From assembly GCA_973895155.1 (NCBI GenBank), contig OZ316894.1, positions 1,690,457-1,754,456 on the forward strand: a stretch of DNA of 64,000 bases, given 5' to 3'. The first letter of the stretch is position 1. Each line of letters begins with the position of its first letter. Of this stretch, positions 9,985-58,123 are shown piece after piece. The position numbers and the translations under genes are program-made. Under the pieces are notes generated by a model. The model ran no database searches and was not told where the DNA came from. It saw only the letters and a list, made by a program, of their open reading frames with translations. Source of the DNA: Marsupella aquatica. Its lineage: Eukaryota; Plantae; Marchantiophyta.

Positions 9985-12805
9985 ATAGGTTGAAAAGGAT
10001 GTGGATAGACAATGGTTCTAATAGGAGAATGCCACCACCCCCATCATTGGAACTGGATCAATGGACACGGTTAATCAAAGGGTTCATGTCGGAGGCTGGA
10101 CAGAGCAAGAGTGAACTGATGTCAAATGCTCGAGGCAAAGTGAAACACCTTTCACAGGCTGGGAGAGGAAGTTATGCTCCAGTGAAAGAACAATTGGTAA
10201 GGCAATGACATGCCTGATAGTAAGCCTCAAACTTATCATCTTGCTACCATTATTACATTTTCATTGACAATCAACACTTGGTTTCATTCATATGTATGTT
10301 GATGTGGACTGCAGAAGAAATTGACAGGTGAAGAACCATCAGCACAAGAAGTGAGAGAGGAGTTCATGAAACAAAGGAGTGAGGTGACAAGTGTGACTTC
10401 CAAACAGGTGATTATGTTGTAATTTTGTATGTTCTGTGACTATTTGGCCTTGAGCATCAGAAAGAAATGTAGTAGGAAGTAAGCAACCAGTTCTTGGGGA
10501 CAGTTATCTGAGATATGTAAGCTGTGTTATGACAGGGAACTGTTACAACTCTCACAGAGATGTGTGAACGGTTGAAGTCATTAGAGTGTGGACTCCCTCG
10601 AGTGGAAAGTAAATTGGCTGATCGTTTGGATATTGTGGAGGCATCTGTAGCGAACCTTCGTGCATCAGTGGAATCTAATTTCAAGCTTGTGATTGAAAAA
10701 TTGGGTGGTTCCCAACCAAACAATGAGGACAACATTGTACAAAGTGTGCCCTTGTTAACAAAAAAGGGAATTGGCAAATCTGACACAGGTATGGAAATGA
10801 CACCGGCCCATTGTTCATTGTGTCCTATGTTCAAATGTTAGAAGTAAGTTTTCATGAATTGAGTGAATGGTTTGAATGCAGGAAGAGTGGAGGCAGAGAA
10901 GGACCCTGTAATCAGTAAGCAGAAGGGCAAGAAGGTTGCTGAGACAGGTAACCTGCTATGATCCAGTACATTACATTTGAAAAGTGCATGGAGTTTTGTG
11001 AAGCTTAAGCCGGTTGGAGGTAATCTTTTCTGTAAGAACTGGTTGGATGAACTGGGATCTGAAGTGACATCATGATTGATGTATCAGGTGATTCAAAGAG
11101 CAATAATGAAGAAGATGTGCCCAGTGCCTCAGTGACCATAGCCAAGGAGGTATCAGGTAAGCTGATGCTTAAATTCCTCTATATGAATGTTGAGAAACAA
11201 TTCAGTGGTTAATAGATTCAACCTGAATATTGTGGTGTGTTTATTGATCAACAGAAGCAGACATGGAGCATATGGCAATGGCAAAGAAAGGGAAGAAGGC
11301 TGTTCATAATGGTAAGGAGATAGTGACAACTTTGTGGTTGGTGACATGTACATTTAGCACATGTGATGAGTGATTGATTTATGTTGGACATGACACTGAA
11401 TTGTAGTTGATGCAGAGTTGACAGACTCTCAACCAAGTGGGAGCAGGGTGAAGCGACGTCAAAACTTGGGAGCAACATTGGATGCAAGTAAGATTGTAGA
11501 TGCTTCAATTGAAGCAAGTACAATGTTGGCAGATACTGAGATGATGTCGCAGGGAAATCCTGCTACACAATCAGAAGTGTCAAATATGGATGCAGATTCT
11601 TTGAAGAAGAGTGTAGCCAATTCTCGATCACCAGCACAAAACACTCGTGCCAAATTCATGACTCGCAACCAAGGTATGAATAATGTCATGTATAAGCCAC
11701 CCAGGAAAGCCAAGAAAAACAGCCAGGGTAAGGTGGAGGTGATAGCCACAGCAGAGCCAGTCCATAATCTTCTATCATGGGAGGATGACTCACATGTATG
11801 TGTGGGTACAGGCATTTTGCGACCGGATCATGCAAAATTCCATGGCAAAGTGGTCCCGGAAGACCATGTAGTAGTGTTGTTGACTACAGTGATTGTATCT
11901 GATTGTAATTTGCCATTTCCGAATAGAGACGATGATCCACCTCAGGAAATAATTGCAGATGCAGTAGGATCTCTTGTGCTCTGGCCATCAGAGTGTGTTA
12001 GTCTGCAGTGACTGAATGCAAGTGTAGATAGAATCATGTGAATTGTGTCACATTTTGACATTGCCTTGGAAAGATCCAAGAAATATCTGTACCAATTTTT
12101 CCATTTGGTAAAGAGGATGAAGGAGCCGTTGTGTGTGACATTGATATTTCTGAATTCTGTATGTATGAAACAAGTGATTGATGTCAAACTATGGCTCTAT
12201 GGTGATTGTCTATGATACTTGAATCTGTTTTGTATCATTTCAGTATTAGTGTGTATGGTATAGAGGAATACTTTGTGACCTTCTTTGTAGTCTATGAAGT
12301 TTGAATCTATGAATTCATATTAGTGTACATGGTATAGAAGATGGCTTTCTGAAACTATGTATTCTAATGTTAACATGATGAATGGTGAACTTATAGAGTG
12401 AGTTCATTCCAAGTACACAATAAAACATGAATGCAATATGTTATTTGTGCACAAGAGTGGGTTCATTCCAAGTAGTATAGTGGGGTCTTCATCACTCATA
12501 TCCAGTTGACATGAAATACTTATACATACCCCACAAAGTATATTTAAAGACTACCCTCCATAACCTTTTTAGTCGTTCCCAACGACTCACCAAAGCTACC
12601 CACACAAAGACTAAAATAGACTGAAAATCCAGTCTATTAAACGACTTATAAACCAGTTCTATAAAGGACTCAGTTGATTATAGTAACAAAACATACGACT
12701 CGCAGTCCTATAAAGGACTGGAGTCCTTCCCAGTCATTTTCAAGTCCTATACGGTACTGAATAGTCGTTTAATGGGGTCTAAATACCCCCCGGTTTCTAC
12801 TAGTG

Positions 12806-13341
12806 TTTCTCTTCACCATGATGAGGAGATGGAGAGAAAGAATCCAAATTAAAATCCTTCCAAAACCCGGAATTCCCAAATCCGGAAATCTTAATCAAGT
12901 CGCAAACTTCCCCTCTCAATCGAACGATCACCCACTTCCCCCGTAACGAACTTCCTTTCAACTATTGCCTTGAAACGGCAGCCTCGTCCGGCTCTAAACT
13001 CTCCTATGAGTCCTCGCAAAAGATTTCTGCAACAGTTCGGTGGTGTGAGGAATGCTCGGTGTGGCGTGGTCTTAAGAACTCGGTTGCCAACTTCCGGTCT
13101 CCGGTCAGATGTCAGACTTATGGTTTTAATAATCATTCTCCCACGCCTACTCGCATGGCTCAACGGTGTCGTTACTTAAGAGTTCCAAAAAAGGTGCTAT
13201 CCGGATATTTCCGGATTTGATACTGAAAAGTAGTTTGTTATGGTCTGTTCCAATCAAAGTATACTCCGTTAACCACTAAAAGTTGAAAATTTTTAAATTT
13301 TTGCACTTTTTAATTTCCTTATTTATAACCATGGTATCACA
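12806..13341 (+). mobile_element. Probable LTR 3' fragment into which the CACTA inserted
   Basis: Ends in TGGTATCACA at 13341, exactly where the tyrosine-recombinase frame of element A is cut. The matching 5' end and TSD are not in the window. Confidence 0.45.
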
Positions 13342-16300
13342 AAGACACAAGAAATACCTACTTGTTTAAACAGAGGGCTGGTCCTCAAGTTGAAAGTCGT
13401 TTCATCGATCTTGACCAGAGAGCTGAACTCTAGACTCTTTCTTACGATGAAGCATTTTGTGAAATGCACGGTACAACCTCATTAAGGTCTGGCTGGGATA
13501 AAGACAACCATCCTTCTTAGTAACCTGTTCAAAAAAATTGGTAAGATACTGCAGTACGTCGCCAAGTAGCAGGTCTTTGAAAGGAGTAGTGACTTCCCAA
13601 CCCTTGAACCTGCGGTACTTCTCAAGACGATCTCGGGCCCACTTATCAACAGCCGCAGAAGGATTCGTGCCACCAGCAGTGATCATCTTCTAGAATCCCT
13701 CATCCTCAACAAGAAACTCAAATGCAGTTTGTCACCTACTTATCAAATGATTAACACAACAAATACCGCTTGGTTTCCACTAAGAATCGTTTGTATCATA
13801 TGACGGGGACGTGGAGGCACGTTATATGGATTAATTTCCTACTAAGGATGAGTAGATTCAAATCCGCTCTCGAAAATGTATTTTTGATCAAGTATACCGA
13901 CTATACGTGTACTCCGCCTTTGATCAAGTCCCATGGACTATCTTGTTCCTACTTCTCCTGGCCTTTGGCAAAGTGCTGTCACCACTCCCCCACTCACAGG
14001 GTCAACCAAACCATGTAAATTTTTCTAAACATTCATGCTAGGGGAAGAACACAATCGTGCAACAAAGAGAGAGAACGCCACACAAGAATTTATGAGAATC
14101 CAACCGAATCTATATCTTTTGGTGTCAACGTAACATATTGCATGGGCAACCCGACCTCTTGCCGTCTGCCCAACTAGCTCCTGCCTCATGGGACAATGAG
14201 CGCCTCTCCACCTCACTACTTTGGATTAATTCTCTACTCTTGTTGAAGGCTAATCCTCAAAACAACAACACTAGACTGAGTTGCCCCTTGCTCCTACCAA
14301 GGGCTACTGGTTCAATACCAAAAAAACAATGCGCAAGCACACAAGCCCTAGGGGGTGTGACGGCGGCCACTACCCTGGCTGGCCGCCATCCACTGGCGGC
14401 GCCTCTAACCTATAAGTTTTCTACACATGCGGCACACCCATGCACTCATAACCCTATTGCTACTCATAGACAGCCAACGGTGCCTTTGTCGGCCACCACA
14501 TCAACTAAGCAAAAACTAGACTAAGTCCTATATAGGCCATGGTCTGCCTTGCTACTACGTGGCTACCTCTACCTCCCACTACCCTGGCCATGAGAATTGT
14601 TGAGAGCAAAAGTTTCTTGAAATCTGGTCCTGAGAAATTTTCTGAATAGCCATTGCCATCCTGATCGTAACCCCCAAAACGGCTCCCAAAATGAACATGA
14701 TCAGACGCCCGAGATATGGCTTACCGAGTCTTGGGTTCTACCCCGGCCATCATCACGTCCAGGTCATCTGTACGGTCCCGACCTCCCATCAGGAAATCAT
14801 AGGAGGTACCCTGGCCAAGGCCGCATGCCAAGATTTGGCCAGGGCACTCTCCTGAGTGATGTATGGACGTCCGTACGGTGCCGGACCCCAATTTTTTGGC
14901 CAAAACGCTCTGGTCCATATCTTCCTCATTTTAACTCTATTTGGGGCGTGTCTTACCTTGTTGGATTCAACTCGGTGAGCTCTTTCCAATAAGCCTATAA
15001 GTTCTTGATTCTGAGAAGATTGAAAATTTGACTTTTGTGTGGCCAAGGTCCGTACGGCTCATGTACTAACCTTCATCTAACAACTCGCTTGTAGTAAGAT
15101 CCTCATCTATAGATTGGCCATTGGAACCCTCACTGTCCTCTTGGCTGAGGTCTCCTTGGGCTTGCCCTCCGGTGGCTGGGGCTCTTTTGGGTCCTCCCCA
15201 AGTGCAAGTATACTCCTGGTCGGGGTCCCCAAATGGCCAAGGCTCTTTTGAATTTTCTTATTTTTTAATACTTTTGTGTCTAGCCCATTCCAAAGCTCCT
15301 TTTCCCTATCTCTTCCTGGCTAGGGTCAAAGTGGTGTTTGGCCACTCACACATTTCGACCCAACCCATCATTATCTTAATACTAGGGCCGCTTACAAATG
15401 GATACAAATAAAAAATTAGGCAAGTCCCCAAAAGGCGGCACTAGGCTACGTGCCTTGTCTTGCACCGGCCAACAGCCAATTAATCTTCTTTCTCTGAGGC
15501 TTGGCCAATAACTAAACTCAAGAGGACATAAAAAAGATAGCAACAACTCCCCACATCCATTTTGCATAAAATACCTTTGGCAAGGTTGTAAGAGAACAAA
15601 AGCAAAAAAACCATGACACAAATCTACCTATTTACATTCGTGTGTCACTAATACCCCTTAAAATCATTCTTTGGGGGCATTGGCCCTGTCACACAGTTTG
15701 ACCTTCAACCTAAACAACAACCTATGGACTGATAGGTGACTCTATATTGACACTATCAAGGCCTGCATTGAGCAAATCAAAATGCATTTGCATCTGGTTC
15801 TCATCGAGAGTGAGTATATCAAACATATATGCTAGACACTTGATCAATGTTGTTGGTAGTGGGGAGCCCAAGTGAACGGGAGTTATCTGGTTCTTGGCGA
15901 GAGCCGACATCCCAATGTTGAATGACGAGATTGCCAACGCCTTTGGTGGTGTTGTATTCATCATGTTGCGTTTGTGCCATTCTAGGCAATTAGGATATAG
16001 GCTGGAATATATCCTCAGTATGAATGTAGCTCAATGTAACCGCACGCATGAGCAATGGCATGCAATAGTCCTCAAAATCACTTACCTCCCACCGTGACTA
16101 AGATCTGTGAGCAGATAACCTCTTTCAAATGCCACGATCTGCAGAGATGAGCACAAAAAGTGATTCAGTTAGCACTCACAAAATGCAACTGGACCTTGTA
16201 ACATATGACACATTTGAGGAAGCAAAATGGCAACAACAGAAGTACTTACGTTTGTCAACAAAGATTGAATGTGTATAGCATGGACTGAAATTCAAAGGAA

Positions 16301-17042
16301 AAGCAACAGAAACTCACAAAGAAACTCGCAAACTATTGCATGAAAGGAAAAAAACAAGAGAAAGGAATGTGTTGTTGCAAAGCCTTCACCAAACACCAAG
16401 CGTCCTGGACAAAAAATGGTCGAGCACATCGACAAAAGTCGAAGAACAAAGCAAAGCGGCACAAAAAAACATGCAGAAAGCTGATCATTGAAATCCCGAC
16501 TGAAAGCTAAACAAACAATGGCTAAAAGCTGAACACGCAAAATGCACTATTGCAAAGCCTACATAAACAAACGACACCGCACGACTGATCGAAACACCAA
16601 ACACCAAGCGTCCTGGATGAAAATTGGTCAAGCACATTGACAAATGTCAAGGAACAAAGCAAAGCAACACAAACAAAACATGGCTGAGAGCTGAACGTTG
16701 AATGAACGACGGCTGAAAGCTGAATGCGCGGTCTGAGCGAGAACTGACAGATTGAGCGCAGATTGAGCACGGACTGAGAGAATTGGTCGACCAAATCCAC
16801 ACTGAACAACCAACAATGGCCAGATGAAGTCGGCCCTAATAAACCTAATCGGGTCTTCCAATTCAACGGTGCGATGTTGTCAACAGATGAATTTGCCATC
16901 CCCACCATCCAATCCTACATTGATCGGGATAGTCCGTTGCATGAATGACATCCCCTTCTTCTTAACGTATAGCTCAGGCTGCACCCCTAATCCCTTTATC
17001 GGATATTAAGTCTCCCATATATGGTCTCCCCGTATACGTGGG
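13342..17042 (-). mobile_element. Crypton-like tyrosine-recombinase element A (degenerate, 3' part removed, split by a solo LTR)
   Basis: The minus-strand translation VEGQT|AFEFLVEDEGF*KMITAGGTNPSAAVDKWARDRL..RRFKGW..FFEQVTKKDGCLYPSQTLM.LYRAFH..SPLFKQVGISCV is co-linear with element B. Upstream homology at 15.7-16.1 kb. Inverted arm at 16961-17037. Confidence 0.8.
13730..15693. mobile_element. Solo LTR (1964 bp)
   Basis: CAGTT (13725-13729) TGTCAC...CCTGTCACA CAGTT (15694-15698). Excision restores the recombinase frame VEGQTAFEFL. Confidence 0.85.
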
Positions 17043-20000
17043 TGTCAGATGCCGAATTAGGTAGTAGTGTTTGACTAGAGTTAAAACTAGAGTAACTACA
17101 GTTAGAAGTAACCGCAGTTAGAGGTAGAGTAAGGTTAAGCGGAGGAAGCGGATGCATAGTAAATGGTAGAAGGTCAAGACAACTTAGCATGGAGTGTCAA
17201 GCTGACTTAGGTGCAATTGAGTTAGGTTAACATTTATTAGGTTAGCATTAGTAGTTGTAGTACTTTGCACACAATTGAACGGACGGCCTACTTAGCGGAA
17301 TTTTAGAAAAGTCTTAGGATAGAATTAGATCTGGAAATTCAGCAAGTATGTAGTCTTAGGTTCAAGGAACACACCAGAAAATTTTCAAGTAAAATGGAGG
17401 TTGGGCACGATACTGGAGAATTATGAAATAGAGGTTTCACTATAAGTGCACTCAAACGGGATGTCGTCTAAAGTAAATTACAGGTTCTTAGTACAATATA
17501 AGCAGTGTTATAGGAGTTTGATGAGAAGGCCAGGAGTCATCATGGGAGTCCTTCTCATAGGGACACAAAGTCCAGGAACAATTTACGTTATGACCAAGAG
17601 AGGTGCAGCAGAATTTCAGCAGCAATTCAGCAATGGCAGCTCGGTGCATTGAAGAGAATTCAAATCCTACCATAAGGACAACCGGGTTGACTCTGAAAAA
17701 ATGGAGGAACATAGGATTGCCTGAAGGTAAGGCATGAGGAGATAAGGAATTGAATCTCGCTGGCAAGGGAAATCTCTATGGTGCTAGAAGGAGCTCTTGA
17801 GATAAGGAAATCTCATTACTTGGACAATCTTGTTGTGGCAATAGAGATTAGCCAACATTTCAATTTTGTGTTGCTGAGTTGAACCGCTGCTGCTATTGAG
17901 TTTGATGTTGGTTGAGAACAATTGTTGTTGCTGAGAGCTTGTTGCTGAGAGCTTGCAGTTGTTGGGAGTAGTGCTGCTGCATAAGGAGAGTTGTTATTCA
18001 ATTAGAGCTCCATTGCAGGGAGAGCTTTGTGCTATGGAAGATGTAGCAATGCTGATGGGAGGAATATTGCCGCACAGTTGGCTTCTATTCAATTAGAGTT
18101 TGCTGCTTAGAACTTGCTATTGATAGGCTATGGAGAAAGCTCACTACATTAGTTGTTGATTGATCCTTGAGATTGATGCTGCTACCCTGAAACTCGTGGC
18201 TGCCTGAAGTAGTTGCAGCAAAATCGAAAGCTTGAAAGTGGGGAGCTGGCTAGTGACCGGGTAGAGCAACTTCGTGCTACTGAGCTATGGAGATTGAAGG
18301 TAGCTCACGAGGCTGGGAAGCTATGGTGAGAGCTGCATGCTGCTGAATTAGTTTGTGGACCCCCTAGCTACATTTTTTAGGCCTTGTTTGAGCTTGCATT
18401 TTGAGAGGCTAATATGGTCCATAATGCTATGCTAGCACACATTAAAGAACTTAAGGTCTATGAGATATTTCACTAATTTTAGAACATTAATTAATAAACC
18501 CAAGGCACAATTTTGTTTATGTTAGTTGATTTGGGCATTGGATGACACTATATCTGACCACTAAATTGCCATAGGCACTCAATTTGAGTTGAGAATCTTG
18601 ACTACTTTCTCCACATCAATTGAGAAATCTGCTTTTCTAAGCAAGGAACCCTAAGCTTTCTAGTAGTTGAGTCCTCTTTGTAGAATATTTGTCACCTGAT
18701 TTATCTATGTACTTTCAAATTATTGGAAATTCTGGAGATTTCACTGAAATCTAAATTTGGCAAGTTTTGAATTAGAGGTTAATAGCCTCATGACCTTGGC
18801 GCAACTATTCACCAAATGGAGAAGGGTAGCGCTTAAGCTTTCAAATGAGAGAAGTCTGATTAAGAAGAGAAGTTGGTAGTCATGTTGTGTTGGACAAATA
18901 GGTTAGATTTTATAGCTTGTATTGTTTAGATTAAATTAGATTTTCTCACGAAATCAATTGTGGACCCATTCAACCATGCCTGAGTAGTTGACATTTTTTC
19001 AACTGCCACATGAATATTTTGCTTTGCAGCCTGCCAAAGTTGACAGCATGGTTATCACAAGTAGTTGTCAAAATCAGGCTTTTTCGCTACATGCAACCAA
19101 ATTCTCAAGCTACAAGAGTCAATAGTCAATCCGTGGCAAGTCCGTTTGAAACCAGATCAATGTGTGACCAAATGAATTGAATCAATTCATTGAGTTCAAG
19201 TTCCGACCATAGTTGGCAGTTTGCTTGAATTGCAAAAGGTTGAAAATCTTGTTCCATGTGCCAATTACCCTTTAACAAGGAAGTTATCAAGTTAGTTATT
19301 AGTCATTGTTTATTATTTGAAAAATATTTTTTAAATCTTTGAATCCCGCTTTGAATTTAATTTTTAAAATTGGATACGTAACTAAAACGGTTACATAGTG
19401 ACAATTTTACCGGTCTTGCTCTTTGCATTTCTAAATTTTTACATTTCTTTTTACGGCATGGCGTCCCAAAATTTACACCCAAATTGACGCAAACACAAAT
19501 GAAAACTGTAAGTTGATTCATAAACCTGATGAGTCTTGTTTGTTGCGGTTGTTGTTGACATGGCACGCTCTGGTGCCAGGAATTTTGGAAGGGACCTCTC
19601 ATGGGGTCCGTAAAGACTGAGCTATGGAGGAAGGTCGCTGTTGAAGAAGAAAAAAAAAGGAGAGCAAAGAAGAAATGGGGAAGCAGCATCGCGATGCTTC
19701 GCGCTACGGCAAGTTGCTTTGTGCTGCCTCGCGCAACATAGTGTAGCATAGCGCAACAACTTGGTGTTACAAAATGTTGATGGCGAGGGAGGAGTTGGCG
19801 ACCGGTTTTGAACTCGCGACCTGTGCCTTGCTAAGGAGTTTGAATGGGCTACCAAGGGAGCTGTCCAAGCTCTTTGTTTAAAGAGTCCACACCAACTCTA
19901 ATTGAACTTGGTACAACATCTGTTTCTAGGCCTTTGGGAGGACTTTGAGGCCAGTTCAAAGTCGGGTGAGGGACCAAGGAGACTAGGGGAGAACCCCACG

Positions 20001-21460
20001 AGGTAGACCCAACTCCCGTGATGACTCAGCAGTGGTTTTGAATTTGAATGGACTATGAGAAGTTTTTTTATGTGCCCTTAAAGTGGCCGCTGAGTTAAGT
20101 AACTGTGGGGCTATTATGAAGCCCAACACTCAGGGGATACAAATAAAATAACTAGCCAAGATTTCAGTGTTGCTGGTTAGATAGTTAGGCGTTAGTATTG
20201 CGGTATACCAGCAGCTTGAGATACTTATGTTTCGCTGGTTATCACCCATTCACGTGGAAGTACTCTCTGGGTAAGGTCTCCAAATTGAACAAGGGCCGAT
20301 CTGTATTCATGTGGTAGCCAAGACTCAGTGGCATAACCCGAGACTTAGTGGTAACCCGGAACTCAGGGGCGTTCCGACATTCAGTTGTGGGCCGAGCTAG
20401 AGCTTTCTTTCGTGAGTATGTTGTTTTAAATATAGTGTATAAATTCTGGTGGTTGTAAGAGTTACCAAGGGGTACCCTGGCTACTCACATCACAAGGAGG
20501 TTCTGCTGCTGCCGTTTCTTGTGTGACAACCAGAGTCGGAGTTATAGTAGTTGAGTAACCTGCGATTAAAGTAGAAACTTAACCCGGGTTAGGTAGCAAT
20601 CATCTAGTTACACTTGGATTAACTTTTTCCAGTGACTACTAACCCGAGTTAGCACCCTAGGCCTAGTTTGGTTTGGGTTGGCTTTGGCTTGGAGCCCTGG
20701 GGTGCTGTGTGAGAGAATAAGAAGAGAAGCAGGGGGCTGCCTCCTCACTTGTTCATTCCTACCCTCTCTTGTAAGGCTAAAAGCTTGGAGGCTGAGGTTC
20801 TCATTTTCAGAGGGCAGCAACATTGGTTTGAGGTACTTGGGAGGGTGGATAGTGAGCTAGTCCACTAGGTAGGTGGCAAGGAGAGAGTCAAGGAAGGTGT
20901 TGGGATCTAAACTTGTAATGTGCCTTTTAGTAAAGACTCATGTTGAAGCCTCAGTCTTGAAGCACTGTCTAGTGAGTATGTGAATCTAGTGAGTGTGTAT
21001 GCCGAAGTTGACTATTATGATTTGACACCAAAGGGGTGAAGCTTGAAGCCTGGGAGTGAGCTTAGACTCGATCACTTGCCTTGTTGCAATAGGAGGTGAT
21101 GAACCTAAAGCTCTCGGTGAAGGAAGCGGAGGGAACTCTGGGTATACTGACCATAGCAAGAGTCTGTGGGGACAGCTTGTGGGGTTGCTTGCCCTGTTGA
21201 GATCAAGAGCGAGGTTGTGTGAGTGCTTCCTAGTAGGGAAGCAAGGGAGTGATAACCACCCTTCAAGGTTATCTTTCCAAGGGTGGAAATAAAACTACCT
21301 AGTTGGGTGTATGAGTGGAGAAGAAGGGAGTTAGTCTAAAAGAAATAGACTTGCTGTCCTACTATTCGCCCATCCTAGGAACCCGGACAACAATAAGAAG
21401 GGGCATAAGTGGTGAATTTAACTCTAAGGGAGAGTTAAGCCCCATTGCAAGGTGTTGACA
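17043..21460. mobile_element. Large solo-LTR-like insertion (4418 bp), non-coding
   Basis: TGTCAG...TGTTGACA termini with a near-perfect TSD, GTGGG (17038-17042) / ATGGG (21461-21465). Excision restores a ~150-bp palindrome. Confidence 0.75.
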
Positions 21461-21721
21461 ATGGGTTGACCATATACGGTTGCCTATAATATCCCATAAA
21501 GGGATAGTAGTGGACCTTAACAATATACGTTAAGGGTCGTGGGGTGTCTTTAATGCCTCTCGGTTTACCAGAGCTTGCCACTAGAAAACTTTATATCTCA
21601 TTATTTGTGGTTGTATTTGGGGTGTATTTATACACACAACATTTATGGATACAGAGTTTTCAAAAACACAAATACTTAAATAAGGAGAAATCCCATAGTA
21701 GGGGATAAGAATTTATTCATA

Positions 21722-24292
21722 CTAGCTCAATACTCGTGCGTTGCACAAAAGAAGTTGTGTCGGCCAAGATGTCATTGAGAAAAAATGATGCGTGTCAGCC
21801 AAGAGGTCGTGGAGAGAGAAGATGTTGTGTCGGCCAAGAGGTCGTGGAGAGAAAAGATGTTGTGTCATCCAAGAGGTCGTGGAGAGAAAAGATGTTGTGT
21901 TAGCCAAGATGTCGTTGAGAAAAAGGATGTCATGTCGGCCAAGAGGTCGTTGAGAGAAAAGATGTTGTCTCGCCCAAAAGGTCATTGAGAGTAACTTAGA
22001 TGTTGTGTTGCCCAAGAGGCCGCTAAGAGAAAAGAAGTTGTGTTGGCCAAGATGTCGTTGAGAAAAAAAGATGTCCTGTTGGCCAAGAGGTTGTTGAAAG
22101 AAAAGATGTCATGTCGGCAAAGACATTATTAAGGGAAAAGATGTCATGTCGGCCAAGACATTGTTCAGGGAAAATACCCGTGCGTTGCACAAAAGATGTT
22201 AAGAAAAAAGATGTCGTGTCGCCCAAGATGTTGTTATGTGAAAGATGTCACAAATTAAAAAGATGTCGTTAAGAAAAAAGAAGTCATTTTTGCCAAAGAT
22301 GCCATTATGTGAAAGATGTTGAATGTTAGGAAAAAGGTGTCATTTTGCCAATGATATTGTGAAGTAAAAGTTGTTATTAAGAAAAATGGTGTCATTTCAC
22401 CCAAGCTATCATTATGTGAAAAATGTTATGAAGTAAAAAGTCAAGGAAAGAAGGAGCGAGTCTTTTTCTTTGTTTTATTTTTTTACCCAAAATGCCCCTT
22501 CATTTGAATGGCGACCACTCTATAAATTGGCGCAACGTTATATTATCAATTTCAGGTTTAGTGTTTTAGGGTTTAGGGTTTAGCAAAGATGATCATTCTA
22601 TCGGTATCCTTTCAATCCCCATGCATTGCATAAAAGATGTTGTTGAGAAATAGATAGTCGTGCAAAAGATATCGTTGAATAATTTTTTTTTGAAAATATA
22701 TTATTGCACAAAAAGTTTTGTTGAGTGAAAGATATCATTGTGCAAAATACTGGCTACATCAGCCACACAAGTTCCATTTTCTTTTTTCTCCTTGCACACA
22801 AAATTCTTGAATAAAAGATGTCATTACACAAAAGACTGGCTATGACAATCACAAAAGTATAACAAAATGAGAGGTGTTTTTTTCTTCTTTTTCTTTTAAA
22901 ACATTTTTCTCTTATATTCCTTTTAAACATAACAGTTTTTTATTGATCTAGTGACTAAAATATTATTAACAATTAAGCTCCTCTTACCACTATTATACAA
23001 AATTATGCATTTTTGAAACTGCTATATGGTGAATTCACCTTTCAGATTTTGTCTTATTCAAAGTTTTGGTGTCATATATTTTTATTTCAATGTGCCTTAT
23101 CAAGGGGTAGCCTGTGTATCATATACACTTTTCATTATTTCAATGTGCCTTATCAAGGGGCAGCCTGTGCATCATATACATTTTTAATTATTTTATGGAC
23201 CCCTTTAATTTTTAATTTTTAGAATTCTAAAGTATTTTGAACTTATTTTGGCAGCCCCTTTATAAATTTTAATGTTTGTGATTTATTAGAGATGAAATGA
23301 ATGGCTCCACCACTTGAACATTCTCATGAATGATAGAAATGATTTTGATTGTGTCTTAAAGTTGTTCTCATGTCTTTCTTTCCTAAGTTTATGGTTTTTA
23401 TTGTAATGAGTGTTATTCATGAGGACATTGAATTAAGTGTACACATCATAGCATCCTTGATTGTACTTTTCATTGTGCACCAATCCTTCTAGTTATGTTC
23501 TCATATTTTATTTACTTTTAAATCAGTACAAGACAAAAACTCAAGCATGTTCCACGATGAACATGCTATACTATATGCACACAATATTGAACATGTACAA
23601 TACTTACTTGTATATGAATATATACAATATTTAGTTCCAGGGATCATGGAGTGAGTATCCTCCTTGATCCTAGTGCATTCATTTTTTGTTGGTGTCTAGT
23701 GTGATTATTGGCTTGTCTTGGACAATGGTCTAACTTTTTGTGAGTCACACTAAACTCAATTCACACTTTGTCATTATTATTTACCTTTTGATCAGATTTT
23801 TAAAAAACATTTCAGGTTGCAAATTTGAATGAAAATCTTACTAATAAAGCCCGAACTTCAGCCTACTTTTCACAAGCTAGGGTCTAGAGTGAAGCCTCTA
23901 GACCATAACTCTCTGGTCATCATGTGCATGGTCATCATATACATGGGAAAAACTTATGACATGACTATGATGTATATACATGTCAATTTTATGTGATAAT
24001 TTTTAAATATTTACATTAAAAAAAATATAGGTAGTATGGCCCCACCACAACATATGTGCATTGAACATGGATGTGCAAACAAAAAACCTGCGCACATCAA
24101 GGAGAATGATATATTATATATGACTATTAAAATGATGGGGTTTTTTTATCATTTCATTAATCTTCAAAGAATATGAATTAAAAATAGATTTTGATAATTC
24201 TTTATTGTCCTCTCTGCTATTCACGTTCAAAGAACGGGTAATCGGGGCTAGTCGCTCTAAAAAGTGACGCACCTATATATTATAGTTTAGGA
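21722..24292 (-). mobile_element. Non-autonomous Helitron (2571 bp)
   Basis: The minus strand starts TCCTAAACTATAATATATAGG and ends GTGCAACGCAC hairpin + GAGTATTGAG + CTAG. It sits between A and T with no TSD and has no RepHel ORF. Confidence 0.85.
21750..22440. repeat. Degenerate ~30-bp minisatellite (GGCCAAGAGGTCGTGGAGAGAAAAGATGTTGTGTC-like) inside the Helitron 3' region
   Basis: About 20 progressively decaying units. Includes a second copy of the Helitron hairpin at ~22177-22190. Confidence 0.8.
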
Positions 24293-24370
24293 TGTAATGC
24301 AAAATTTTCGCGGGTCCACCATATAGGGTCGCCTAGAATATCCCATAAAGGGATAGTAGCGGACCTTAAT

Positions 24371-25026
24371 AGGGCGTCTCAAATATGAGGCGTCTTGGAC
24401 TTTTCGCCGGACCGGGGGACAGCGGTCAGGGACAAGAGCCAAAAGGTGGTCGGTCGCCCATTTTTGTGACCGCTATTTTGTGTCCGGACGAGTTGCCGTG
24501 ACCGTGAACTTCCAGCCAAGGTAGCCAGTGACTGCCCGTCTGCCAAACATTTTGAGAGGCGACCATGTCTATCTCTGTGTCTAGTTGCGAGTCAATCACA
24601 AAATCTGTCACCTGCGAATTGAGTGTTCCTGGAATTGAAGTTTGAGAATCAGGCAAAAATGAATTGGCCATGGTGCAATCCACTTGCTGGAGTTGTACCG
24701 GCAGAAACACTCGAGATGGTAGTGGGATCGCAGATCATCACAGAGTGGAATGCGGAGCATGCAAAATGTCTTGGTCAGGCATAGTGCAACGCATCAAGGT
24801 TTGCGGAGTGGTTAAAAAGGCTGAAATATTTTTCTGCGGGCAACCCTCTAACCCACTGTTAAACTAGGCTTTAACCCAAGGTAGAGTGGCCCGTGGACCC
24901 TCTCAAAACAACGCACCCCTGCACGGATGTGTTCCGAGAATAGGGACCCGGACAGCCTTTCGGACCTCCTTTTTTACGGGCAGAAGTCCGGACACGACGT
25001 TGGGGATAGCATATTTGAGACACCCT
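24371..25026. mobile_element. MITE (656 bp) with 17-bp TIRs and AAT TSD
   Basis: AAT AGGGCGTCTCAAATATG ... CATATTTGAGACACCCT AAT. The homologous empty site is visible at 21512-21535. Confidence 0.85.
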
Positions 25027-25449
25027 AATAGTATACGTTAAGGTCATTGGGTGGGTGTAATGTTTTTTGGGGCTTTAGGCTGCTGCCACGTTAGCACTTT
25101 TTGGGTGGATGATATCTCATTATTTTATACCGTATATTTATACGGTTCACATACGGCCAACATAACTTTTTTTGAAAATGAAAACTCCCGCGGTGGAGAG
25201 ACTTGAAACTTTATTGATAACAGGAAATAATTACATCAATAAGGGTCATATGACCAATTCAAGACAGTATAAAGCCTATGTATATACATGATTGATTGAG
25301 GGTTGTCTGACAAAACCCGTGTTCAGGCTATAATATCTATGTCTAATATGCCTCGTAAGTACTGAGCACAATGCCATGCGGGCCAACTACAATGAGTTCT
25401 ACACTCACGGTATAAGCCTATGTCTACAAGCTAGTAACTACCACTGACA

Positions 25450-26976
25450 TTAGTTCCCTAACTTCCCGATAGAAATCAAAATAGTGCAATTGTTGATGGA
25501 CTGCACTTTAGTGAAGAGTGCCTGCACTGGATTAACAACAACAGAGCTTGGCCGCAAGTTCTCAAAATGCTCATCCCAGTTGTAGTCGTCAACCCATCCG
25601 TCATCCCTCCAGTCGACCTCACCATCTGCATTCACACCACAAGATAATTCACTCTCAGTTAAGGGAGCCAATTCAATCACCATAGGAACCATCTCATTTA
25701 GAGGAGTCGTCATCTCAGTTGTGGCAGGGGTCTGAATCTCTGCTGGACCCATTGTTGGAGCAATGTCTGCACCAGGTCACAAAATTACACTAATTAGTGA
25801 CTGCAGATATTTAGCAGACAATATCAAAAGGCTGCGGATCGATCGACATTACAAAGATTCCACAAGATTACCTTCACCTCCCTTCTTGCGTTTGTGAGGC
25901 GAGACATCGTCATCATCTCCATTGACCACCTTCTGCTTGAAGCGTTCTGTCTCCTCATGAAAATTTGCTTCAAAACTGGATGAGCCATTGGCACATTTCT
26001 GGGTTGCTATAACCTTCGACTCTGTGCTGCGATCGTATCGGGCGTAGGCACCTTGGCTCTTATGGCCTATGATAATCATCCCAACTTCTGCAGGAACGCC
26101 TTCAGTCGCTATGCGAGTCACACAAGTGGTCCTGCCAGATTTGTTAGTGACACCATTTGTAACCAAACCACACTCCCGATGAATCTCCTTGAGAATACCA
26201 CTCAACTTCTTCACAGACACGCGCTGAGTCGAGTACCATGCATGAGTCCGAGGGCTATCTATGCATTGGTAAAATAGAAATATGCCTGCAACAGGCAAAT
26301 GAGAAATCAAACTCTCGACCGTCTCAACCATGGAACTATCGTAGCTGGTTACAACAGGCCAAAAATGCTCATCCTGATACCGACCGAGACCAACTTTGTA
26401 GTTCTTTGATAGACGCTCATCATATCTTACGAACCATCCAGTCTCATTGCATCCAATTTCGAAGTCTGTCTTCGCCAACCGATGCAACTCATCACCTCCA
26501 CGAATGGCAAATTGAAACAGAAGGAAATACATTGCACGACGCTGTAGGCCACGAGGGTAAATAGTGGCTGTGCAAGGGTGAGATAATATAGTGGCCTCAT
26601 CAGCCAATGAGATGATAGATGCCTTTTTACGAGGAAAATTAGCACCATTAGATCTTGACCGCTCCATCGCTAACACGCAAGCAATGCCAACTTGCTTAAA
26701 CAGAGGACTCTCGCACATATGAAATATGGGCTCGTCCATCCCTGTTTGTACAATTCGAACTTCCTGTCGGCGCCTCAATACTCGATGAAACGCACGGTAC
26801 AGTCCCATTAACGTCTGGGTCGGATATAAGCTGTCGTCCTTCTTACAAATTTGCTCAAAAAACTTGATTAGGATTGATGCACATTCAGCCAAAGAGAGAT
26901 CCTCGAATGGAACACTCGCATCCCACCCTTTAAACTCTCGAAATTGAGTCAATCGATTGATTGCCCATCGATCCAC
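25450..26976 (-). CDS. Tyrosine recombinase (Crypton/DUF3504-like), with one intron; N-terminal extension to ~27340 carries an in-frame stop at 27022-27024
   Basis: Catalytic layout FAIRGGDEL (R), LSKN (K), TNKSGRTT (HxxR position, H->K), IIGHKS (H), YARYDR (Y). Upstream motif KKDDSLYP..TL. A phase-1 GT-AG intron at 25871-25767 joins the 25766-25450 exon in frame. Confidence 0.8.
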
Positions 26977-28051
26977 AGGAGCGCTTGGGTTAGAACCGCC
27001 CTCGGCAAGGGTCTTTTGGAACTATGGATCTTCTGCAAGAAACTCTACAGTTGCTTGGCCCTGAACTTCGATCACAATCGGGTCTTTCTTGGGACGCTCA
27101 TCTACATGTAAGCTGTCTAAACTCGCATTCAGCTGTTGCAGCTCTGCCATACAATTGTCACCAAATGTGCAATCATTCGAGGAACTACTCATTGTGTCGT
27201 CAACGATAGCAGCGCCTTTCATCATTGACATCCCTATGCTAAATGATGGCCTGTCCATCCAAATCAACAATGCACAAACTAGGAGGTCCTCCAACAGCTT
27301 CAATTCACCAACCTGCAGTTGCATATGGACAGTCCATGGCAATAGCAGTTAGAGCAGATAAAGCGACAATGACCAGATTGCACATAAGAAAATGAGTTAG
27401 CAAGCATAGCAAGACAAATGTGACCCGGCCCTCTCAGCGCCTCTGGCCCGCCAACCTCCACATACGTGTACAATCCATGGCTGGAATCGGCAGCAAGAAC
27501 CGATGGCAAGAGCATTCAACTCGTCCTCCAATGCTTCTCGCTCGGCACCCTGTAGGCGCACACAACTATCCATGAATTTAGACCAAACAACGTCATCAAA
27601 CGGAGAATGCGACATGATTTATCAACATAAACCAATGCACAAACAAATCTGCAAGCAATAGTGTGACCCAGCCCTCCAACACCTCCGGCTCGCCAACCTC
27701 CAGTCGCGCATCAACAAGGTAATATGCAGCAATGTGAGTAGCGAAATCAATCAATCTCCCGATAGTGAGCCGCTGGCAACACGAAGTATACACGACAACT
27801 CAAGAGCGCAGTGCACCGGGAGCACAACACCAATCTACAAATCTACGGAACATCTGCGACATAATGACAAATACCTGAATAGTGAGCGCCATATAGCTGG
27901 CGGCCTCTGGTTGGCATTTGACCTAAGCCGTTCGATTAGCCCGCCCTAGCTCCTTTCAATCGGAGCTGTCCATCAGTTTTCACGACCCTGACACAGCACG
28001 ACGCTTGGAAGGCCATCCATTCCTCCCGATGTAATCTCCGTCGTTCGTTTT

Positions 28052-28199
28052 GATCCTTAACGTTGATTAGGGGCTCGGCCCTCCCCATAATGGGGTACGG
28101 GTCTACGCGTATGCGTCGGCCCACAGGGCCTCCACATACGCTCGACCGTATACCCCATTATGGGACGGGTAGAGCCCTTAATCCTATACGTTTTGGGAT
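28052..28199. repeat. Long imperfect palindrome (~60-bp arms)
   Basis: GATTAGGGGCTCGGCCCTCCCCATAATGGGGTACGGGTCTACGCGTATG pairs with CATACGCTCGACCGTATACCCCATTATGGGACGGGTAGAGCCCTTAATC. Confidence 0.85.
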
Positions 28200-30038
28200 G
28201 GCATCAAAGCCCTCCCGCCCTTCCCTCGCCGCTACTCGCCTACTCTCTCAGTGGCACACTCCATGATCCAGCAGAGCCTCAGAACTTCCCGGTATGCCAC
28301 CGGATAGGGTTGTGCATCGCCTCTGAACATTGAGGATATCTGCAAAGAGATGTGGTCGGCTCGGCTCTCCCTCTCTTGGACTTTTCTTCCCTTTTTACTT
28401 TTGCTGTTCTCTAACAGGTTCGACAGGAAGTTTTCGAAACAACAATAGGACAAACCGACTATCCGTTAAATTCCACTGCGAGGATCTACCGTAGATTTTT
28501 TAGAATTTAGTTCAGGTTCGGATCTCCGGAAGACCATGGCCGTGTCTTTTGGTCAATCGATTGACTAGAACACTTTTACAGAGCATGGTCGGATAGGGGA
28601 ATCTTTAGTTTTGGATTTATAAACTTTTTGTAGGTCCGCCTGCGACCAAAGGCTGCAGATTGATGGTGAAAGTTAGACGAGGTTAGGCGTCTAGCTTGAA
28701 CAGGGAAGCAAGATACTGGCCTTGTGTTGACGAAGTACACTTCCTGTTTTAACTGCAGGCTCTAGAGTATCCATCCTGTCGAAGGCCTAATCGATATCCA
28801 TCCTGTAGAAGGCCTAATCGATACGTGAGTTCACAGAGTTGAGGACAAACAAGGGAACGCATTTAAGTAGGCGAAACGAGACCAGACTGAGAAAATACAA
28901 GGTCGGACGACAGCCATACACCCAGTTAAGCTCCTATTGAGGCAAGCTAATCGTCTCTTCAACTCAAACTCAACATTTCCGAGCTGCACTTTGGGTACGT
29001 TTGATAGGTTTTCGTGGTTGCCTGCAGTCGGTGCTTCTCTCGGTAAAAATGCTTTGTTGAGGTATTTTGTTACCCACCTTTGCATGAATGGGAGGTGCTG
29101 AGGTCTTCGGTTTTCAGATCTCCCGTGTCAGTGAAGGCCGCAAGTGCAATTTGACGGAATCTATGGATCGCGTAGGAAGTGTGAACTCTACTTAGTGGAT
29201 TTCAGTGGAAACTTTGCCTTCTGTTTGGTCCCGGGGTATTGCATATTGCTTGGAAGAAAGTGAGGTCAATTTTAATTCTGCACGGACAGATCTGATAGTC
29301 CAAGGCCTTTTTGTCCAGTTCTGGTAGTCCTGCTTGTCTAGCTTCTTATGGACTCACTTGTAGCTCTGCACTCTTCAACTGCTCAGCGATGATGAACAAA
29401 GAAACCAGACTTTTCTTTCCCCACTCCATTTTCACAGATACTAAGAAAGTTTTCTGGGTTTTGCCACCCTCGAACCCAGGTCCTCAACACCCGCGGCTAC
29501 TAGTGTGAAGTTGAAGACTTTACTCTTGCACCTAACGCTAAGTCTTGGGTTACTTTTTGAGTTGACAGGATATCTATCTATGGATCGAAGAGATAGTTCT
29601 CCGGGCTTTGCACTGCATCTTCCGCGGTTCACTAAAAAGGCGACTGACCTCCGTTCTGATCTCCCTTCTATTCATACAGATAGATTCGAGCCTTTAAACT
29701 AATAAAATCTACCAAAGGTGAAAACTATCTCCAGGTTGCAATTGAAATATATATCACCTCCTAACGTTTTTAAGCTCAGAGGCTCCTGGAACCGGCTGGG
29801 CTTGATTAGTAAGTGTGCACTGGGGAATCTGTCCTAACTAACATTGGGCATATCGTTCTATACTTAGATCTGGCAGTTCTTCATTTGATGTACGCTCGAT
29901 CCTACACTGCTAGTGCGGCTCCAGCTTTCGCGTCATAGACATACCAGTGACATTTGTGTGAGGACGCCTCCGAGCTTCGATACTGTTATGGTAATTGTTG
30001 ACCTCTTTCCAATGCGTGCCTGGTCGGACTGCAGATTC

Positions 30039-33000
30039 ATGGCGGTGGTAAGTGAAGTCGTTGCAGTATGCAGTTCAATCCTCGGCATTGTGTCAAAGAT
30101 CGACAATGTCAAGGAAGACTGGTTCACTGCATCAGCCGAGTACCAAAGTGAAGCGGAAATCCTCCGCTCAAGGCTCATCTCCTACGTGGAGCAAGTCCGT
30201 ATCCATCAGCAACCAGTGGATAGTACTATGATGAAGACTTTGAAGAGAGCCGAATCAACATTGAAGAGGGCGGAAGCAAGATTGACCAGCTTGGAAGAAA
30301 GCGTCGACAGCAACCAGTGCTGTTCGCAAATCTGGTGGTTGTATGCAAAGGTGACCATGACCCTTTTCCCAGAGAAATTAGAAAGCACATTGAAGAAGGT
30401 GAACCAGGACCTTGATGGCATCCCCAAGATACTCAAGGACGAACAGGAACTCTCTGGTCTACTGCGAGAAGCAGGCAAGAGTCGAGCCATCTCTACAGTT
30501 GTCCACAATAACGATAATAAATATGTGCCAATAGAAAAGTCACAGTCTGCGGTCATTCAAGCCATTGAAAATTCTGACGGCCCTCCCATGATACTACTGC
30601 ATGGTGGAGTAGGTAAAGGCAAGTCCACTCTTGCCAGATACATGTGTGAGCGCTACGGGCAATTTGGAGAAAAACAAGGCCTCTTTGATCACGTGATTGT
30701 GGTGTCGTGTGCTAATAGCTCCATAATTGATCTTGCCACCAAGCAATATGAAATCTTGGAGCAGCTTAGTCCGGCGAGTTTAACGGAGGAAAGCCGCTCA
30801 AAATCTGGAACTGGAAAATCTGGGGAGAGTATGGGCTCAAAGTCTAGAATTGCAGAAGCTCTGCAAAAGTTCTTCATTGGCAAGAAGGTTTTGATGGTCT
30901 TAGACGACGTTTCAGATAAGGGATTTCTGTACAAAATGTGGGAGGCTGCGAGAGATGGTAAAGATGATAAGATCCTCATCACTTCCCAATTGTCGAACAT
31001 ATGCGATGACTTTAAACATGACTCTTTGCTTATTACGATGGAAGATCCTACCAAAGAGGAAGCGAGACAGATCCTTGCTTCTCTTGTGGGGCTGGAGAGT
31101 AATCGAATTCCTGAGAATATACAGGTTAGTTCCCCTCAAGCACATTTCACCTTGGTCGTTTATTGAGGAGGTACGTGTTTTGTTAAAATGTCCGTTGTAT
31201 TTCTTTTTAATATCTACCAACTAAATTTAGTCCTCACTGTTTTATCTTTGTATGCAGGGGATAGCAGATGAGATGATCAAAGCTACAGCGGGAAATCCCT
31301 TAGCTTTGGCATGTTTGGCAAGTAACTTTGCTTATGCAAAGCATGCTAAAGATAAAACAAAGAAGCGGGATTGGCAAGCTGCTTGGACAGAGTTATCTCA
31401 GTTGCTAGGCAATAAAGCGATGGCTATCGTGGTAGGGCAGAATAGTGAGACTGCAGCTAGAAGCCTGTCGGGTGCTATGAAGATTTGTATAGATTCTCTT
31501 CAAACAGAGGATGCAAAACACACACTGTTCCTAATGTATGCATGTAAAGGAGAATCGGTTCCTGAAGAGGTTCTGCGGATTTTGTGCTCTAGTAAGATGT
31601 CAAATTCTACATTCAAGCGGTCCATAGATGAATTGTCTATGCGAGAGCTACTGAAGCCTACGACTGATACATTAGCATCTAAGATGAACTTGGAGAAGGA
31701 ACCAAATGTCGAGGAGTCTCCTGCATGGTTGCTACAGTCTTTAGTGAAGCTCTTTATGGAAAGGCATCTGGTTGGGAAACAGGAAATGAGTGCAGTGATT
31801 GGGGCCTTGGTTGGCGATGACGAGTTTCCACCTGAGTCGAGCTCCAAATACAAGGTAGAGGACTATGAACAGGAAATAGTGAAGATTACAACCGGGACTG
31901 GAACAGAAACCACGGAGAGTGATGAGATGAGGGTGACAATCGCTCTGTGTGCTCTGTACTTTGACCGCCGCCATACCGATCAAGGCGTGACTCGAGCTGT
32001 GGCTAAGGCTTCCAAAATATCCAATCTTGAAGATTCGGATGAGAACATCAATGATCTGAGGAGGAAGGCGATTGAGCCGTTGATATGGCTTCTCGACAAG
32101 CCTGAAGAGGACGACGAATGGACGAAAAGCGATAAATGCTGTGTGAGGAAGGTAGTGTCCTGTCCCCTTGAGTATGTTCTTTCGTTTGCAACTTATGTCA
32201 GTCCAAATTGAGGTTAGGGAATCATTCGAGTAACTCTAATACTTCGGCACTCACAGATCTAACAGTTCACATGTTTGCGCATGACCGATTGAGTCAAAGT
32301 TTACTAGCCGTACTTTCAGCCATTGTTTGCAGTTGCCACTTCTTTTGAAAATCAAGGACGGTTCTGTGTAAACTATACAAATTCGACTTCTCCCGTGAAA
32401 TTACTGTTTGATAGCACGTGGCTATGAGGTAAACGCAAGTATTATTTATCTTGTAAGTCTACTGTACAGAATAACAATTTAGGTTCTATATGTGATAGTT
32501 TCTAAAATCAGAGGTCGAGTCTAAGAAGCATGATTTCTTAGACGAGCCATGTGTCTTGGTGAACTTTGTTTGCCTTGTTATTTCACATGATTTCTTGGAA
32601 ATCGTAACAGTTCTGATCTATATTAAACCAATCGCGGTTGTTTCAAGTGATGTTGTGTCACTGAATTGTTTTGGACTTGTGAATCACTTACTTTGCAGGT
32701 TGTTCTTGACTACATATGCAAGCGCCAGCTAAACAACGAGAACATCATTTACCTGTTGAAGTTGGCTGCTGGTCCTGCTGTACAGCTGGCCACTCTCAAG
32801 GCTATCGCTCACATTACATCAATAGAAGAAACACCCCTGCTCAAAGAAAACACAGTCCAGTTTTTACAAGCTGTGGTCGACCTTTTGCATTTGAAGGAGG
32901 GTTTACACACTGGCGTTCAAGAGGCGGCCTCTACGGCACTACGTCGTGTTTGTTGGAAGGCCGCGGGTGACAAATCAGCAACCCTTGTTGCTAACATGTC

Positions 33001-42800: not shown

Positions 42801-42848
42801 GTAATCGCTGACGGATTTCTAATCCGTGCCTGGTCGGACTGCAGATTC

Positions 42849-57900: not shown

Positions 57901-58123
57901 TGAACTTTCTCGATGCAAACGGCAGGAATCTGCTCACAATGCACCATCTCCAATGTCTGCGAACATCAAGGTCCTTCGAGCAAATGATGCACAATCATTG
58001 TGTGCAGCTGAAGGGCGGGTGAAGAAAAAGTGAAGTGAAGTGTAACTGTACTGTACTGGGTTAGGGTTGAAGGATCAATTGATTCATTCAGGGGAGGAAA
58101 CCAATTGCAATCTGAGCTCAGCG

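Follow-up and report, generated by a model that had tools for sequence, protein, structure and literature searches.

We analyzed a stretch of 64,000 nucleotides from the liverwort Marsupella aquatica (contig OZ316894.1, positions 1,690,457 to 1,754,456; hereafter the window) that carries two diverged tyrosine recombinase (YR) genes, YR-A and YR-B, which mark two elements, A and B. Inverted sequence arms of ~100 bp accompany both genes, and we find that, as cis sequences, they belong specifically to this YR family. In our preferred reading, to which we assign a probability of about one half, the arms are the recombination sites of a Crypton-like YR, a full palindrome made of two arms is the joined-ends form of the site (comparable to a circle junction or to attP), and a lone arm is a half-site. 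The evidence base consists of two decayed element copies and of coarse contig data from four public sequencing runs (X1-X4), which contain 55-67% of the sampled words of element B and yield short contigs only.

Arms and palindromes at the two elements

We searched the window with a profile built from the arms (nhmmer). Only five arms are present in the 64 kb, with E-values from 1.5e-24 to 4.5e-6 (the next match has E 0.62), and all five adjoin the two YR genes (Table 1). Four of them form two palindromes, A (arms A-left and A-right) and B (B-pal-left and B-pal-right); the fifth, B-lone, stands by itself. The palindromes lie at equivalent sites upstream of the two diverged genes, with ~975 bp (A) and ~790 bp (B) between the outer edge of the left arm and the YR start codon, an arrangement that supports the reading of the arms as recombination sites.

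Table 1. Coordinates of the recombinase genes, arms and inserted sequences in the window
Feature	Position	Strand	Remarks
YR-A fragment	13335..13731	-	~residues 80-213 of full-length relatives
YR-A N-terminus (MMNTTPPKALAISSFNIGMS...)	15700..15964	-	frame translation compared with relatives' N-termini; has stop codons
A-left arm, type a	16939..17042	.	nhmmer E 3e-20
Unrelated 4.4-kb insert	17043..21460	+	splits palindrome A 4 nt from the dyad
A-right arm, type a	21466..21556	.	nhmmer E 1.5e-24
Tail beyond A-right	21557..21634	+	similar to the tail beyond B-lone
B-lone arm, right-type, inner part	24308..24371	.	starts at the dyad position; nhmmer E 6e-14
MITE within B-lone, 654 bp	24372..25025	.	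16-bp TIRs and TAATA duplication
B-lone arm, outer part (GTATACGTTAAGG...)	25031..25063	.	nhmmer E 4.5e-6
Tail from B-lone toward the YR-B 3' end	25064..25144	+	alignment to the A tail; contig linkage
YR-B gene	25450..27258	-	catalytic R174, K206, R297, H320, Y329 present
B-pal-left arm, type b	28049..28122	.	nhmmer E 8e-17
Palindrome B centre, ACA	28123..28125	.	sequence and predicted fold
B-pal-right arm, type b	28126..28210	.	nhmmer E 5e-21
MITE, miniature inverted-repeat transposable element; TIR, terminal inverted repeat.

Palindrome A is an imperfect palindrome of ~195 bp that appears when the 4.4-kb insert is removed, joining 16939-17042 to 21466-21556. Its dyad is centred on CGTATACG, with the centre sequence CCCCGTATACGTGGG. 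An initial annotation, made from the letters of the window, had proposed that 16961-17042 and 21466-21534 form such a palindrome; the first segment aligns to the reverse complement of the second with a local score of 56, and a weaker pair, 16939-16971 and 21524-21556 (33 nt, 73%), extends the palindrome outward. The computed join folds as DNA with an energy of -41.1 kcal/mol, compared with -19.0 +/- 3.2 in 200 shuffles (z -7.0). Palindrome B, which the same annotation had placed at 28052-28199 as a relative of palindrome A, extends over 28049-28210; between 28065 and 28183 it is self-complementary at 76% over 121 nt (E 2e-14), and its fold energy of -45.9 kcal/mol (z -7.2) was reached by 0/200 shuffles. 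The relationship of the two palindromes is thus borne out, with the difference that the centre of B reads GGCCC-ACA-GGGCC and not GTATAC, and the arms, first given as ~70 bp, are actually about 75-105 bp long. Contigs that match the assembly without differences cover 15657-17084 (X1), 21433-21747 (X4) and 27864-28139 (X1).

The insert that splits palindrome A looks like a sequence bounded by long terminal repeats (LTR), starting with TGTCAG and finishing with TTGACA, and it is flanked by a duplication, GTGGG at 17038-17042 and ATGGG at 21461-21465. It contains no internal repeat and no Pfam match, and it has no second copy within the window. Exact contigs (X1, X4) span both of its junctions, and its empty site does not appear among the joints listed (15 of 704). 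A very-high-copy repeat, 18346-19611, is nested within this insert and is skipped in contigs of other copies.

The lone arm lies at the opposite end of element B, ~390 bp downstream of the YR-B stop, where the initial annotation had placed a right-hand arm interrupted by a MITE. This description holds: 24312-24369 is 90% identical to 21463-21520, the MITE is bounded by the TIRs GGGCGTCTCAAATATG and CATATTTGAGACACCC, and MITE-free paralogous arms read straight through the insertion point in 5 contigs of X1 and 6 of X2. The homology of B-lone to A-right stops 2-3 nt or less from the dyad. In the 160 nt to the left of B-lone there is no remnant of a left arm (alignment scores 16-19; shuffles, made for A-left only, have a mean of 17.8 and a maximum of 29), and the 59 bp to its left resemble none of the tails. 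The sequences at the arm junctions differ, with TCGC before the lone arm and ACA after B-pal-left.

On their outer sides, A-right and B-lone continue into similar DNA, which we call the tail. The resemblance, also claimed by the initial annotation, is real but modest: 21535-21634 and 25044-25144 (~100 nt) align with a score of 34, compared with 19.8 +/- 2.8 for shuffles, and 0/300 shuffles equal it. Between the tail of A-right and B-lone lies a 2.5-kb very-high-copy repeat, 21717-24252, with a summed depth of 4000-6800 in X1 against ~16-21 for single-copy contigs. Within it lie 13-15 units of a 35-bp tandem repeat (21715-22420) and two tandem copies of a 53-bp unit (23082-23187), and its part 23834-24250 recurs in inverted orientation at 54494-54863 (81%). 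Its right end, ...GGGGCTAG followed by T at 24252, has the look of a Helitron end, and 78-90 contigs in each of X1-X3 and 37 in X4 diverge there. If the repeat is one insertion, A-right and its tail were originally only ~220 bp from B-lone.

All arms share a common build: innermost is a (C/T)ATA(T/C)(A)CG block, next comes CC(C/G)AT.A.GGG, which resembles a small hairpin, and outermost is a TATACGTTAAGG block, beyond which ~25 nt show weaker similarity. The pentamer ATACG/CGTAT, a motif picked after inspection of the arms, is found 41 times in the window; 10 of these copies fall within the 485 bp of arms, for which the window rate predicts 0.31. Each arm has two such motifs at a spacing of ~50 bp, mirrored from one arm to the other, and the centre of palindrome A adds an inverted pair that overlaps. 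In the palindromes, the ends that join element-internal DNA (TATACGTTAAGG and tail) point outward and the tips meet centrally, which is the reverse of a MITE. This orientation, together with a copy number on the order of that of the YR gene, led us to reject a MITE or foldback identity for the arms. A separate candidate for the crossover site was CCTTAAC-N7-GTTAAGG, a small inner inverted repeat that lies where the type-a right arms end outward; it was rejected, being weak or absent in the other three arms.

Comparison of the arms over 72-73 core columns shows that A-right and B-lone are closest (89% identity), followed by the two arms of palindrome B (68%) and the two arms of palindrome A (66%). 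B-lone and B-pal-right also share 66%, A-right and B-pal-right 60%, B-lone and B-pal-left 51%, and A-left and B-pal-left 44%. Among 68 ungapped core columns, 7 have changed on both arms between A and B and still match within each palindrome, compared with 1/68 when the pairing is swapped, and in 6 of the 7, B-lone agrees with A. The identities and the co-changed columns together indicate two arm types: type a, comprising A-left, A-right and B-lone, and type b, comprising B-pal-left and B-pal-right.

The recombinase genes and other copies of the element

YR-B begins with an N-terminal open reading frame (ORF; 27348-27022) whose start, MDRPSFSIGMS, is like that of its relatives. An in-frame TAG at 27022-27024 separates it from the main ORF (27021-25849), and the C-terminus is read in another frame (25776-25450), the frame change falling between 25849 and 25776. 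Judged by its one stop and frame change, the copy in the window is itself probably inactive. In paralogous contigs (2 in X1, 8 in X2) the stop codon reads CAG through the change 27024 A>G, and paralogous contigs also have 1-2-nt insertions ahead of the conserved C-terminus, so that some other genomic copies may be free of both defects. Between the YR-B start and palindrome B, a 26-nt GC-rich motif (CAGCGCCTCTGGCCCGCCAACCTCCA) occurs three times, at 27435-27460, 27529-27554 and 27677-27702, with the copies 65-85% alike; these could be promoter or binding elements.

The initial annotation had counted A among the YR elements. What the window retains of YR-A is only an N-terminal fragment in two pieces, parted by ~1.9 kb of foreign DNA, and a YR-A catalytic domain is found nowhere in the 64 kb. 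When eight relatives were compared with the window by tblastn, the only matches outside YR-B fell at 13335-13731 (45-61% identity), and the two YR genes share an N-terminal stretch of 96-108 aa, whose identity to YR-B or the relatives is no higher than 53-61%. The point at which YR-A is truncated borders a very-high-copy repeat, 12000-13167.

The recombinase is most similar, at 64% identity, to unnamed proteins of another liverwort, Calypogeia fissa. A profile of YR-B and four relatives matched 1949 proteins at E <= 0.001 in a representative library, and 27 of the longer ones were scanned against Pfam. The DUF3504 (PF12012) cut-off was passed by 17/27, and QRICH1 was also matched in 16/27 (E <= 0.001), while the 10 closest of the 27 matched neither. 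The window protein itself has a weak Phage_integrase match (E 0.0029) and stays below the DUF3504 cut-off, as do all 7 close relatives, 3/7 of which match DUF3504 below the cut-off. One 790-aa relative (P0011) carries N-terminal pentatricopeptide repeats, either as a chimera of gene models or as a fusion or domestication.

The residues R174, K206, R297, H320 and Y329 are kept in 25-30 of 30-33 aligned relatives. An AlphaFold2 model of YR-B built from a 33-sequence alignment has a predicted local distance difference test score (pLDDT) of 87.9, and it replaced a 5-sequence model with pLDDT 46.5; a sequence search of the PDB with the 5-sequence profile gave no meaningful match. In Foldseek, the best solved matches of the model are Cre-lox complexes (E 8.7e-8, template modelling scores 0.53/0.63), and further matches include the Tn1549 integrase with circular-intermediate DNA (ranks 19-33), the Xer, integron, lambda and phage Brujita integrases, and QRICH1. 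Telomere resolvases (protelomerases) also cut dyad-symmetric sites, leaving hairpin ends; the palindromes here are dyad-symmetric, and no such resolvase is among the Foldseek matches listed. Pfam detected no reverse transcriptase, RNase H or integrase in ORFs of at least 100 aa in 24312-28276 and surroundings, or in some shorter ORFs scanned outside that interval. The Cre-like predicted fold, the conserved catalytic residues and the absence of reverse transcriptase or another enzyme thus indicate a Crypton-like tyrosine recombinase gene.

Contigs of the public runs give an estimate of how often each part of the element occurs elsewhere in the genome. Depth is here a summed per-contig figure, to be taken as a rough guide, and the X1 bins count sequences of 80% likeness or more. 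The right flank (28313-28452) has a depth of 25 in X1, parts unique to B 36-40, the MITE 35-54, the YR core 180-214, the tail 206, the two lone-arm bins 163 and 288, and the palindrome bin 407. Arm abundance is therefore ~1-4 times that of the YR core, which is of the same order as the gene, indicating that the arms are not a high-copy independent repeat. At position 28148, 13 contigs with a summed depth of 790 read C where the window reads G.

The linkage of arm, tail and gene also recurs in other copies. The tail is entered at 25064 from a diverged arm-like CGTTAAGG... sequence in 17 contigs of X1 and 14 of X2, one paralogous contig (1105-nt) links the tail to the YR 3' region, and a 90% paralogous contig shares 27864-28092, that is, upstream DNA together with the left arm. 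The exact X1 contig 27864-28139 has a depth of 39.9 (~2x that of the flank) and ends 15 nt beyond the dyad of B, and single-copy DNA follows directly beyond B-pal-right, where an exact X1 contig (28163-28717) has a depth of 20.9; the ~2x-flank stretch consequently ends inside B-pal-right. Other contigs lack internal parts of the element (26494>27828 in X1 and X2; 25512>26716 in X2) and are probably non-autonomous deletion derivatives of the YR element, as in a transposon family.

We also scanned metagenomes with patterns for both components. None of 156 pattern matches for YR relatives was confirmed by tblastn, and the arm pattern returned 81 loci, of which 0/81 are arm-like (nhmmer E <= 1e-3) and 0/81 encode a YR relative, indicating that these loci are chance matches.

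Recombination site, internal palindrome or dispersed repeat

What is the function of the arms? Four features together point to a recombination site: the enzyme is Cre-like, the palindromes are dyad-symmetric, their motifs are reiterated, and the half-site breaks off at the dyad. Under this interpretation, the YR would bind the reiterated (T/C)ATACG motifs, and a circular copy of the element would carry the intact palindrome. Exchange at or near the dyad with a right-arm-like site would then integrate the element, leaving a lone right arm at its 3' end and, at its 5' end, a left arm abutting the right arm of the target to form a full palindrome, which is the layout of B. Resident right arms could be reused as targets, producing head-to-tail neighbours as in the layout of A, and a half-site would be made by exchange or breakage at the dyad. 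The integrated unit may be either right arm-tail-YR-upstream-left arm or YR-upstream-palindrome-tail.

Several observations weigh against this interpretation. The lone arm is of type a (89% identity to A-right, 51% to B-pal-left), so B would be a chimera if B-lone and B-pal-left are both its ends. No tail-like DNA lies beyond B-pal-right (compared with the A-right and B-lone tails, z about -0.4), and with single-copy DNA in its place, this arm is not the start of a recognisable neighbouring element. The initial annotation had taken the arms as element termini or recombination sites and the palindromes as circle-like or tandem junctions, implying self-targeted integration, which is in essence the scheme above; the tie to the YR is upheld by the restriction of the five arms to these genes in the 64 kb, their equivalent placing, the half-site at the dyad and the copy number, but the 51% identity of B-lone and B-pal-left and the missing tail speak against a simple tandem junction. 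Short direct repeats that match each other are missing at the arm flanks, the overlap sequences that the scheme predicts are not seen, and the central spacers are unequal (~8 nt in A, 3 nt in B). By rough arithmetic on the bins, B-type right arms outnumber left arms and the YR core ~4-fold, suggesting that many right arms may stand alone. Neither element is intact: the damage comprises a stop, a frameshift, the MITE, the LTR-like insert and a truncation. Because palindromes are known to break centrally even when no recombinase acts, the half-site does not prove exchange. The run contigs yielded no pair of empty and filled sites, no excision footprint and no circle-junction read, and the empty site of element B is absent among the joints listed (15 of 21). 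The paralogue at 40.7-45.1 kb, a gene of the nucleotide-binding leucine-rich repeat (NLR) type, is too diverged to serve as a proxy for the empty site: homology starts only from 28277 = 40743, with nothing arm-like to its left.

A possible but somewhat unlikely alternative is that the palindrome is not cut at all but stays whole inside the element and acts in cis, for instance as a promoter or regulatory hairpin, as a structure related to replication or as a DIRS-like internal copy of joined ends. The true ends would then lie elsewhere, for example ~80-220 bp past the right arm on one side and beyond the YR stop on the other, and the lone arm would be a palindrome broken at its centre. This would explain why the arms within each palindrome are of the same type and B-lone is of the other, why a discontinuity occurs ~80-160 bp past both right arms (the satellite-bearing repeat from ~21717 and the paralogue homology from 28277), and why the stretch of ~2x flank depth crosses the dyad of B. 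DIRS1-like elements, as described in the excerpt of PMC3266345, have two internal complementary regions at a 3-bp 'circular junction', and the centre of B is 3 nt. However, the recurrence in other copies of the linkage from arm to tail and from tail to YR fits a lone arm and tail that are B's own 3' end and not a stray fragment; moreover, no reverse transcriptase, the reason for the internal complementary regions of DIRS, is present in the element or the larger ORFs of the window, nor is there a third, inverted terminal copy to the right of palindrome B. As a speculation, arm-to-arm conversion within a palindrome might reconcile the intact palindrome with the recombination-site reading.

We consider it distinctly unlikely that the right arms are an independent short dispersed repeat, beside which the YR elements came to lie by insertion or chance, with the left arms as inverted copies. 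Such a repeat disagrees with the absence of any further arm in 64 kb, with an arm excess over YR genes that is a few-fold at most, with left arms that pass without a break into the YR upstream region at a matching distance in both diverged elements, and with the 90% paralogous contig spanning upstream DNA and left arm. In its favour, right arms appear commoner than left arms or YR cores (depth ~800 in 13 contigs at 28148, compared with ~200 for the YR core, the bins being split by our own arithmetic), their conservation between elements (60-89%) exceeds that of left arms (44%), and one of them, B-pal-right, has no element body behind it. To a chance resemblance or an assembly artefact we give almost no credence: the fold z-scores are about -7 (with no shuffle as stable for B), profile E-values reach 1e-24, and exact contigs of independent runs cross A-left, A-right and the dyad of B.

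Surroundings and comparison with known systems

The window as a whole is plant-like, with ORFs of NB-ARC, ARM/U-box and Exo70 type and a Tnp2/CACTA transposase. Duplicated NB-ARC and armadillo-repeat genes at 29889-34462, 42774-46368 and 51103-53543 form an NLR-like cluster, in which 29930-32297 and 42740-45103 are 91% identical over 2.4 kb and the upstream regions only 67-84%; element B lies just upstream of the first NLR copy, with paralogue homology from 28277. An intact-looking 641-aa ORF at 267-2192 matches Transposase_21 (Tnp2/CACTA-type, E 2e-57), 38017-38709 is a C-terminal fragment of Exo70, and an ORF at 58046-58744 has a weak match to the SSB family.

It is instructive to compare the elements with known YR systems, since the boundaries and recombination sites of Cryptons have so far been poorly defined. 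Long, type-specific arms would give a handle for annotating such elements, and they would supply a defined DNA substrate for a eukaryotic Cre-like recombinase. The excerpts of PMC3212892 and PMC13465315 describe Cryptons as having no TIRs and only 4-6-bp direct repeats, in agreement with the background given in the initial annotation. According to the part of PMC9977147 consulted, the active CryptonF-1 of Chlamydomonas ends in CACCG and targets CAYCG, a 5-bp site, and for DUF3504-type elements in Glomeromycota the excerpt of PMC13465315 reports that flanking repeats are not detectable. In the passages of papers searched, we found no report of Cryptons with long inverted arms and none in bryophytes.

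Like a Crypton of the DUF3504 (CryptonA) type, element B is short (~3.2 kb without the MITE) and has one gene, encoding a tyrosine recombinase only; its distant YR relatives, as in CryptonA, include QRICH1 and DUF3504 proteins, and it shares the Cre-like predicted fold and the conserved catalytic residues. Unlike the Cryptons described so far, the two elements have inverted arms of ~100 bp, assembled here into palindromes of 160-200 bp, and no short direct repeats were identified at the arm junctions. Element B also departs from CryptonA in that the window protein and its 7 closest relatives fall under the DUF3504 cut-off and that the host is a land plant.

DIRS1-like elements, in the account excerpted from PMC3266345, have inverted terminal repeats (ITRs) and internal complementary regions (ICRs) that equal the joined termini, and their integration is proposed to proceed through a circle in which the ITRs meet. 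Our elements resemble DIRS1 in combining a YR with inverted repeats of ~100 bp or more, and B's terminal arm together with its two-armed palindrome and 3-nt centre recalls the order left ITR ... left ICR / right ICR. In contrast to DIRS1, there is no GAG, reverse transcriptase, RNase H or methyltransferase in the element or the larger ORFs of the window, no right ITR lies beyond B's palindrome, the palindrome is on the 5' side of the ORF and not on the 3' side, and the YR relatives are of the DUF3504/QRICH1 type by Pfam.

In bacterial conjugative transposons such as Tn916 and Tn1549, a YR integrase works on inverted ends that match imperfectly and lie side by side in the circular intermediate; their end repeats are short and they carry many cargo genes. 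The complex of the Tn1549 integrase with its circular intermediate is among the structural matches of YR-B, a likeness that we take as a mechanistic analogy only.

A family with such arms might also tie Cryptons structurally to DIRS retrotransposons. In its fullest form, this would be a land-plant Crypton lineage with a 160-200-bp palindromic site of reiterated ATACG motifs, a DNA-only counterpart of DIRS1 that integrates at resident right arms in an arm-type-specific manner and piles up head to tail, a scenario that we regard as unlikely when taken as a whole. If true, the terminal logic of DIRS would be older than the capture of reverse transcriptase, and the ends of Cryptons, long held undefinable, would be directly testable. 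By coding capacity and protein, as far as sequence can tell, the element would be classed as a Crypton close to the DUF3504 type, one that departs from the absence of long repeats by which Cryptons are defined.

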